Assembly (NCBI RefSeq): GCF_963506605.1
Contig: NC_083281.1
Coordinates: 17,174,001 to 17,238,000, forward strand
Direction: 5' to 3'
Origin: Zootoca vivipara
Lineage: Eukaryota
DNA length: 64,000 nucleotides
Part shown: one piece after another, positions 47,224 through 49,259 of the stretch
How the letters are laid out: each line of letters begins with the position of its first letter
Position numbering within the stretch: the stretch's first letter is position 1
Notes under the pieces: generated by a model
Told to the model about the DNA's origin: nothing
The model's input: only the letters and a program-made list of their open reading frames with translations
Database searches by the model: none
Translations under genes and position numbers: made by a program

Positions 47224-48041
47224 CTAGTTGGCCCTGCCACGCGTTGCGGTGGCTCAGTTTGTTAAAGGGAGCCTCAGAGTCCCACTTCAGACTCCCCTCA
47301 CCTTCAGAGTCCCCGTTTTTCATGTGTTATGTTTACATAGGCGCATCCCTGTGTCTCCACCCACCCTGTTCTGTCACTCCTCCCCCCATCCCCCGGTTCA
47401 CCCCTGTGATTGGGCCCACCCTGTGACCTATTCGGCCCCCCTTCCCCCACCCACGCAGGCCCCTACCTCCACTTGGTCTAGTATGGTAAGTGGCCTAGTC
47501 TGCAAAGCCGAGGCGAGATACTGTGGAGAGGGCATGTTTCATCCCTGTGTCTCCCCCCACCCTGTTCTGACCCATTTCCTATTCCTGCCCCATATTCGCC
47601 CCCCACCCCCACCCCCAGGCAGGCCCCTACCTGCACTTGGCCTAGTCTGGAAAGCGGCCTAGTCTGCTGCGGCCTATTCAATCTGCTGGGCAATGTTGGC
47701 CTTGTTGCTGCCAAAGGCCTGTTTTCAGTTGGTTGCTGTGGAATTTTGTGATGTCATCTGGTGGTGCGGCTTTGGAGGTAGCAGCGTGCGACCTGTCTTT
47801 CTATTGGATGCTGCTGGAGTCTCCAGACCTTCTGCTGGTGATGTCTAATTTGGGCGCCCCTTTTTGTGTTTAATCATTATTTTACGTGCGAAAGGTGTTT
47901 TTGTTTTTTTTAACTTTACGCCAGATTCCTCCCTGATGGGGAAGGTACAATTTGTCCTAATCTGATGCAATTTGGTTCAGCGGTTACGGAGCAAGGCTGT
48001 GACCTCCGCACACACAGTGGGAACATTGATATATATATAGA
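47224..48041 (-). mobile_element. Non-autonomous Helitron, same family as 43459-44287
   Basis: 5' TC, 3' GCCAC..GTGGC hairpin and CTAG|T. Confidence 0.88.
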
Positions 48042-48257
48042 TAACCCACCCATCTGGCTGGGTTTCATGTTTTGAAAAGGCAGAACTGGAGGAAGAATAT
48101 TCACAGGGAAAACAGTAAACAATCTTCCATCCAAGGCTTGCTGTGGGAGTGTTAGCTTCCCAGGTGCTGCTGTTGAGCCCCATCGAAATATCAGAGCTTC
48201 TTCCCATAGAGAGATGTCTTGAATTTCAAATCAGGATGATCCAGGAGGAAGCATTAC

Positions 48258-48384
48258 CAAGAGAGCCCAAGATCCCATGATTCTCCTCCATGACTTCCTT
48301 GTGCAGAGCTCTCTGGTCAGGATCCAGCAACGCCCACTCCTCTTCTGTGAAATACACAGCTACATCTTCAAAGCACACTGGACC
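48258..48384 (-). pseudogene. Orphan KRAB-A exon E with flanking intron (48042-48713)
   Basis: 127-bp exon [42 protein letters not shown] with AG/GT ends; no SCAN, linker or ZNF exons of its own. Confidence 0.85.
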
Positions 48385-49259
48385 CTAAAAGAAAAAGAAA
48401 AAGGTTGTCCTCTCAGACAACATCAAGGTGAACTGTTACACTTTGCTCTGTTGTCTTCTGCCTCTTACTTGATGTTATGTTTTAATGGGATTCTTCTTCT
48501 GCACATTTCATGATGGACACATTCCCATTTGCCACATGGGAGGAATCCCTTTCTTCTTTCCCTGTGTGCTGTTCTTGCCGGGTGGGGAGGACCCTCCTGA
48601 TGCCCTATAGACAACTTCAAGGGTCGCAGGGGGGCAATGACAGGGGGATGAGAGGGGGAAAGCTCCATTGTGCGACTGATGGGGTGAATCCTGGCCAGTC
48701 TTTGGTATGGTGTATACCAATATATATCGACTACCTGGAGATGCGGGTGATTGAAGCTAGGACCTTTGGCATGCAAAGTAGATGCTGAAACAGTTCCAGC
48801 TTTTCCCATGCCTGCTGCAGTTGCTGTTTGAGCAGGTAATTTGGGACGGCAGCAGCAAGATGGATTGTTCGATCAGTTGAAGGTCAGACTGAGAACATGG
48901 CACTAAAAATATACCTTCAATGGTCACATGAGGCTGTTTTTAAGTTTTGTGCACCATTTTTAGTGCTACCTGGAACCTGGTGGAAATTTTTCAAGCTTTA
49001 GTTTCTTCGCAACTGGAGACTAACCATCAACTGCAATTTCCCTAAAACCAAATTCCAGAGTGCACTAGGACTGGCTGAACACGAAAGTCTACTTGCAGTT
49101 GCTTAGCATGTTGGACAAAGAGACCTGGGTTTGTTTCAGCGTGCAAACTGGGTGATCTTGGGCTAACCAAATGCCTAGTCACGGGACCCTTGTACAGATA
49201 ACCTGGGAAAACTGTATCACTTTAAGCTCTTTAGAGGAAGAGCAGGTTGAAAAGTGGTT

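Follow-up and report, generated by a model that had tools for sequence, protein, structure and literature searches.

Crossover between two Helitrons as the probable origin of a KRAB exon fragment in a zinc-finger gene cluster of Zootoca vivipara

How does a KRAB exon come to lie behind a transposon whose end coincides exactly with a breakpoint of duplicated DNA, and was it the transposon that moved it? This question is raised by a window of 64,000 nucleotides of the Zootoca vivipara genome (C6:17174001-17238000; genome of 1.44 Gb in 48 contigs), which according to self-alignment contains the tandem minus-strand SCAN-KRAB-C2H2 genes A, B1, C, B2, and D. An extra piece of about 1.5 kb, termed E here, consists of a Helitron and a KRAB exon and lies 3.8 kb from its parent gene D. 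The initial annotation of this DNA had primarily read E as an exon captured by a Helitron with the help of a new 5' terminus, and had regarded unequal crossover between two Helitron copies as equally plausible. The features are collected in Table 1.

Table 1. Features of segment E, of its parent gene D, and of the adjoining DNA (window coordinates).
Feature	Position	Strand	Remarks
Gene D zinc-finger exon	41556..42836	-	12 C2H2 fingers
Donor Helitron in gene D intron	43459..44287	-	both original flanks present; empty site in C at 22194/22195
Gene D KRAB-A exon	44508..44634	-	
Gene D SCAN exon	45700..46204	-	ATG at 46113; PF02023
Spacer, unique	46586..47223	.	resemblance of gene D to its paralogues stops at about 46585
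Left flank	47204..47223	+	fits family target preference; likely a transposase-made junction
Helitron, non-autonomous, E copy	47224..48041	-	5' TC 48041-48040; 3' CTAG 47227-47224; apparently mosaic ancestry
Helitron 3' hairpin	47236..47253	-	GC-rich; 8 nt inside CTAG; -6.0 kcal/mol as DNA
T>G variant	47267	+	in D and E only, 2/71 exact pattern matches
D/E ancestry switch	47730..47778	.	putative crossover or conversion-tract edge
Host intron/exon fragment	48042..48713	-	672 bp; paralogous to genes D, C, B1, B2, A
KRAB-A exon of E	48258..48384	-	127 nt; PF01352 E=5e-21; acceptor intact, donor +5 changed
Right junction	48702..48730	.	7-bp inverted repeat and 17-bp filler 48714-48730; holds LTS-like TCGATATATAT on the minus strand, which the donors lack
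SINE, left side cut	48731..48786	.	paralogous copy at C6:33.626 Mb extends further left
Older segmental duplication	48731..61295	+	colinear with C6:33,626,397-33,636,500; 10.2% diverged

Segment E (47224-48713) aligns to positions 43459-44961 of gene D with 92.5% identity over 1527 alignment columns. As had been annotated, the homology begins exactly at the 3' CTAG of the Helitron (47224-47227, minus strand, with an A outside), continues past the Helitron 5' end into host intron, and ends at 48713, and the flank on its left (46586-47223) is indeed unrelated, without any long match in the rest of the genome (10 candidates scored). In E, a dispersed repeat makes up the left 818 bp. Its minus-strand ends are TC...hairpin...CTAG, and 71 exact 23-mer matches to it are spread across the genome, the dispersed copies having the same ends. 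An A stands outside the CTAG in 49 of 50 family 3' ends, the longest ATG-initiated open reading frame in the E copy comprises 59 aa, with no transposase frame, and at the position of D's Helitron the paralogues C and A have an empty insertion site between A and T, without target duplication. Based on these ends, the hairpin, the A outside CTAG, the short reading frames, and the empty site, the repeat is a non-autonomous Helitron. Four dispersed copies (L011, L098, L104, and L146) are 1.2-1.8 kb long, compared to the usual 820 bp, and possibly contain nested or captured DNA. Two further copies (L141 and L169) have about 190 bp of 3' flank in common (84% identity), due either to insertion into the same repeat or to 3' transduction.

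The KRAB exon of E had been described as intact. The open frame and the AG/GT splice sites were confirmed, but the exon has two amino acid exchanges (R>H and D>G) and one silent change, and its splice donor is altered from GTAAGG to GTAATG. Over these 127 nt, the KRAB exons of D and C do not differ from each other. Private changes of E amount to 3 of 127 nt in the exon versus 10 of 518 intron columns, compared to 0 versus 11 in D and 0 versus 14 in C, all of which are small numbers. The exon of E thus changes at the intron rate and gives no sign of purifying selection. If the E exon is spliced to the SCAN exon of D, the KRAB frame hits a stop after 7 codons, and no further SCAN or finger exon was found within 100 kb to the right of E. 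These intron-like changes, the stop after splicing to D, and the missing partner exons on the right argue for a dead fragment, so that the exon of E is likely a neutrally decaying pseudo-exon.

The surrounding cluster recombines visibly, as evident from self-alignment and paralogue comparison. Positions 2464-13717 and 27945-39197, which comprise the genes B1 and B2, form an 11.25-kb duplication with 99.9% identity, whose left edge adjoins a 64-base piece that is also found in a LINE near 58856. In run X6, the depth of B-type contigs was about twice that of single-copy DNA, consistent with a real duplication. In B1 and B2 (at 10410 and 35890), the KRAB-ZF intron is partly lost, including the site of D's Helitron. 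The finger array of gene D stops short at 41556, with a stop at the break, compared to 29 fingers in paralogue C, and a GC-rich upstream block (26500-27950 in C) that the other four gene copies have in common is missing in D. The same contig carries another SCAN-KRAB-ZNF cluster at C6:13.89-14.02 Mb, which is more diverged (80-87% identity).

At the left junction, the 20 bases outside CTAG scored 7.4 with a target matrix built from 33 family flanks, compared to a leave-one-out family median of 8.1, which places them in the top 0.5% of random 20-mers and in the top 1.7% of those ending with A. By its sequence, the left junction likely is an ordinary transposase-made insertion site. ACTA is present at both E junctions, and TTTTAT is found just outside both the D and the E ends. 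Contigs at the left junction extended just 26-27 bases into the Helitron, which is below the 31 bases that we required for counting a junction as bridged. The right junction was bridged by contigs in all three same-species runs (three samples from three studies, one of which may be the source of the assembly), with a depth like that of neighboring unique contigs, and the structure of E therefore is not an assembly error. With a second species (run X14), there was almost no contig cover over the Helitron bins or over 46976-47259, which does not imply absence.

The small inverted repeat TTGGTAT/ATACCAA that had been noted next to the right junction was found at 48702-48708 and 48714-48720. The 17 filler bases derive from neither side, and they start with ATACCAA, which is the inverted copy of the TTGGTAT five bases upstream; a 7-bp inverted copy of this kind occurs in 225 of 37376 random joins (0.6%). 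The initial annotation had also pointed to a minus-strand motif resembling the Helitron 5' end. This TCGATATATAT is present from 48730 downward, it agrees with the family 5' end in 10 of 11 positions, and its TC adjoins the junction exactly, but it lacks the AAATGTTCCC continuation of the family and is absent from the corresponding place in all four donors inspected (D, C, B1, and A). The pattern TCnATATATAT occurs eight times in 264 kb. The G in front of the new TC, which had been raised as a caveat, is there but weighs little, as 3 of 23 genuine family 5' ends have it as well; since the 5'-end search pattern forced TCTAT, an invariance of position 3 cannot be read from these ends.

The right junction cuts an older SINE, and there is thus no simple empty site. 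As the missing part of the SINE differs from the left flank of E, DNA was lost at this junction, and joining 47223 to 48731 rebuilds no target. The idea that the filler is a remnant of a second Helitron's own 5' end was rejected on the same grounds. That E and the duplication shared with the 33.6-Mb region arose in one event is disfavored by the respective differences (382/3738 versus 67/1243, p=9e-8), although the column filters of the two figures differ and conversion could have lowered the second.

The segmental duplication itself spans 12.5 kb and includes a promoter-like stretch (60785-61295) with what we take to be ETS/NRF1-like motifs. Around 50990-51090 lies a candidate exon on the minus strand, and around 49920 a poly(A)-like signal. 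The duplication may represent a non-coding gene oriented toward E and D. Rfam yielded no matches on 43000-64000, and two second-species contigs cover 50873-51245. Inserted in the duplication are a 639-aa open frame with a hAT dimerization domain (53236-55152, minus strand) and a 659-aa LINE endonuclease frame (55990-57966, plus strand).

The initial annotation had suggested a genome-wide search for dispersed Helitron+KRAB composites. None were found: among the best 40 of 3132 candidates, both parts were covered by D and E only, with BLAST counts of the composite being lower bounds. All matches to the KRAB part with at least 94% identity are inside the window, and the exact Helitron-host junction exists at only two places in the genome, D and E. 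None of the 14 junction matches with two mismatches, which presumably are tails of another repeat, coincides with a place matching the KRAB part. The 5' flanks of 45 dispersed copies had nothing in common between copies, and D and E alone share theirs. An empty allele joining 47223 to 48731 was not seen among the 15 contig joints listed (with 375 more), a weak result, as repeats swamp this list. A single copy without an empty site and with Helitron halves of differing ancestry had been named as the pattern that speaks for an NAHR deletion instead, and most of this pattern was found, which counts against capture.

To compare the Helitrons of D and E with their family, we used 32 full-length dispersed copies from 93 loci, after leaving out 14 loci that were the same place and 47 that were short, partial, or long. 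Left of 47760, D and E share one derived variant and differ in 33, whereas to the right the ratio is 7:8 (Fisher p=5e-4), and none of 400 best-cut permutations was as extreme. In the left part, the distance to E is smaller for 28 of the 32 copies than for D, versus none of the 32 in the right part, and these counts are biased upward on both halves, as the copies were partly chosen as best matches to E. The tree of the right part (about 280 bp) has D and E as sisters (support 100/99), whereas the left part (about 540 bp) gives a star phylogeny without a supported D+E clade. In the right part, the variant counts of other Helitron copies are not over-dispersed. To judge from these variants, the Helitron of E is a mosaic, a hybrid element that has the flank and the variants of the donor at one end and a different flank and ancestry at the other, and this mosaic can be read as a two-copy crossover or as an early duplication with later conversion.

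The different ancestry of the Helitron halves is nevertheless not proven, because of the star phylogeny on the left; the AU test does not reject a D+E clade there (p=0.34). Differences between D and E (33/502 in the left part, 8/222 in the right part, and 26/519 in the non-exon flank) are not significantly uneven (p=0.23). D and E are identical over 47244-47306, and 47 of 496 pairs of unrelated copies have at least one strictly private variant in common in the left part. A 2-bp deletion at 47314 is present in E and in about 8 of 55 dispersed copies, but not in D; as no linkage of this deletion to other alleles was found, it may be recurrent. In the KRAB flank, E differs from D, C, and B1 about equally (29, 31, and 28 differences in about 646 positions), and E therefore dates back almost to the Helitron burst, which makes the ancestry test less clear-cut. 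Of the variants that E had been said to share with C, one, at 48468, is a state derived in both; most are ancestral and were lost by D or exchanged with B.

Taken together, we consider it probable that E arose by an unequal crossover of D's Helitron with a second, ordinary insertion, followed by a deletion that was repaired by end-joining. The starting point, a Helitron in the KRAB-ZF intron of D, is evident from the empty site kept by C and A. A second family copy would have inserted at 47223/47224, 3.8 kb away, which would explain why E ends exactly at CTAG and why its flank resembles a target. Misaligned recombination within 47730-47778 would then have joined the 3' part of this second copy to the D-type 5' part with the host DNA behind it, thereby either duplicating a part of D or deleting a part of a fuller tandem copy, and a double-strand break would finally have removed the DNA from 48714 to the middle of the SINE, leaving a snap-back filler. 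The exon could thus have been moved without any need for a transposase. Among the earlier readings, this crossover is the best supported one, and it is left unproven by the star phylogeny of the left half and by the one private base of D and E therein. It is in agreement with the ancestry switch along the element, with the 47314 deletion that E shares with some dispersed copies and not with D, with the family-like left flank, with the single composite genome-wide (within the bounds as counted) in a visibly recombining cluster, and with a right junction whose filler has the snap-back form and which truncates a SINE that is complete in the paralogous segment. At 16194-16777 lies another Helitron, related but more diverged, whose 3' hairpin is the same and whose paralogous site 40568-40575 is empty; it indicates that the region does take such insertions, but a second insertion within 4 kb is still rare a priori. 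The G at 47267 that only D and E have would require a short conversion tract or chance, and the exact position of the LTS-like TC at the junction as well as ACTA at both junctions speak against this sequence of events. The D-E distances, which are not significantly uneven, the unrejected D+E clade on the left, the possible recurrence of the 47314 deletion, and the age of E weaken the argument further. An alternative would be an early local duplication without transposase, in which a break or a stalled fork at 47223 led to a template switch to the end of D's Helitron, followed by copying of 1.5 kb and rejoining in the SINE within a single complex event, presumably of the MMBIR/FoSTeS type, with later conversion between D and E that made the right part more uniform. 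Such a duplication would yield both junctions and the 3.8-kb distance in one event, it accounts for the G at 47267 and for ACTA and TTTTAT at the ends, the D-E distance is compatible with a uniform 5.4% and with the D-C distance of 6%, and conversion has indeed been seen between D and B1. On the other hand, its breakpoint would have to coincide exactly with the end of the Helitron, where just 1 bp of microhomology is certain, next to a flank that happens to resemble a true target, the seven variants in common on the right would need a conversion tract, and the 2-bp deletion at 47314 would have to have occurred repeatedly. We regard this duplication as rather unlikely, albeit as the most serious competitor of the crossover.

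Capture would mean that the transposase started from a 5' end, new or composite, that lay 675 bp upstream of the Helitron of D, that the KRAB exon was read through up to the old CTAG, and that the product was re-inserted 3.8 kb away, with conversion and deletion later on. The exact 3' end and the target-like flank are as expected from such an event, and so is the TC with its AT run that starts precisely at the right junction, while the G in front of it is found in some real 5' ends and the G at 47267 in both D and E; moreover, vertebrate Helitrons do capture coding fragments, as stated in the available part of PMC12001565. However, the LTS-like motif has only 11 bp and one mismatch, so that the host fragment is not enclosed by a genuine LTS and RTS, and as the donors lack the motif, it was not picked up from the flank. 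As the SINE was cut, the target was not simply opened without loss. There is no second composite and no dispersed copy with a common 5' flank, and conversion would still be required for the mosaic. In the Helraiser experiments, as far as the accessible text of PMC4778049 describes them, the 5' LTS is essential, 3' flanks are transduced, and local hopping does not occur. Since the host DNA is located beyond the 5' end of the element and the LTS is essential for Helraiser, capture would need a new LTS in the donor. We therefore find no support for a capture via a new 5' terminus, a reading that is largely refuted, and it appears highly improbable that the events ran along this route. It is just as doubtful that a transposase lifted the KRAB exon with a minimal, newly formed 11-base 5' end, as this would combine 5'-side capture with local hopping. 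A literature search yielded no title that mentions a KRAB exon captured by a Helitron, which is not proof of absence.

If the crossover is the origin of E, this segment is another example of a partial duplication bounded by a transposon, within a zinc-finger cluster of fast turnover, and as such it matters little. It may serve as a warning that an exact Helitron end joined to a host exon is no proof of capture. If capture were true, it would represent a 5'-side transduction with local re-insertion by a vertebrate Helitron, both of which go beyond the Helraiser experiments in the portion of PMC4778049 considered here, and it would provide a route for spreading KRAB exons that acts on the very domain that silences transposons.

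Tandem (SCAN-)KRAB zinc-finger clusters are subject to birth-and-death turnover, with conversion tracts, truncated copies, and orphan KRAB exons. E differs from this usual turnover only locally, in that a young Helitron family gave the homology. With Helraiser/HelibatN3 and the Xenopus element Heli1Xen1, E has in common the TC/CTAG ends, the 3' hairpin, the AT target, and a joined host exon, as far as these are covered in the available text of PMC4778049 and PMC12001565. The captured fragments described there are enclosed by a conserved LTS and RTS and have often been amplified, whereas the exon of E lies outside the 5' end, is not enclosed by a true LTS, and exists in one copy; with the three defining features that were tested being absent, E falls outside the class of Helitron captures of bats and Xenopus. 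The right junction resembles junctions made by SD-MMEJ/polymerase theta, where a deletion goes along with a short insert copied in inverted orientation from break-proximal sequence and primed by an AT pair, according to the part of PMC5728401 on snap-back repair. In E, the deleted DNA is gone, so that neither the source of the last 10 filler bases nor the partner microhomology can be traced. The transposon DNAREP1, which matters for the closest precedent, belongs to the Helitrons. E is unlike the repeat-bounded partial gene duplicates of Yang et al. (2008, PMC2211543) in being local and tandem, with a mosaic transposon, and nothing suggests a functional chimeric gene. As far as the accessible text of that study goes, these duplicates nevertheless are the closest precedent for E: in both cases, a young partial duplicate has the same transposon at the breakpoints of parent and copy, and the same two mechanisms are weighed, NAHR or mobilization of the flank.
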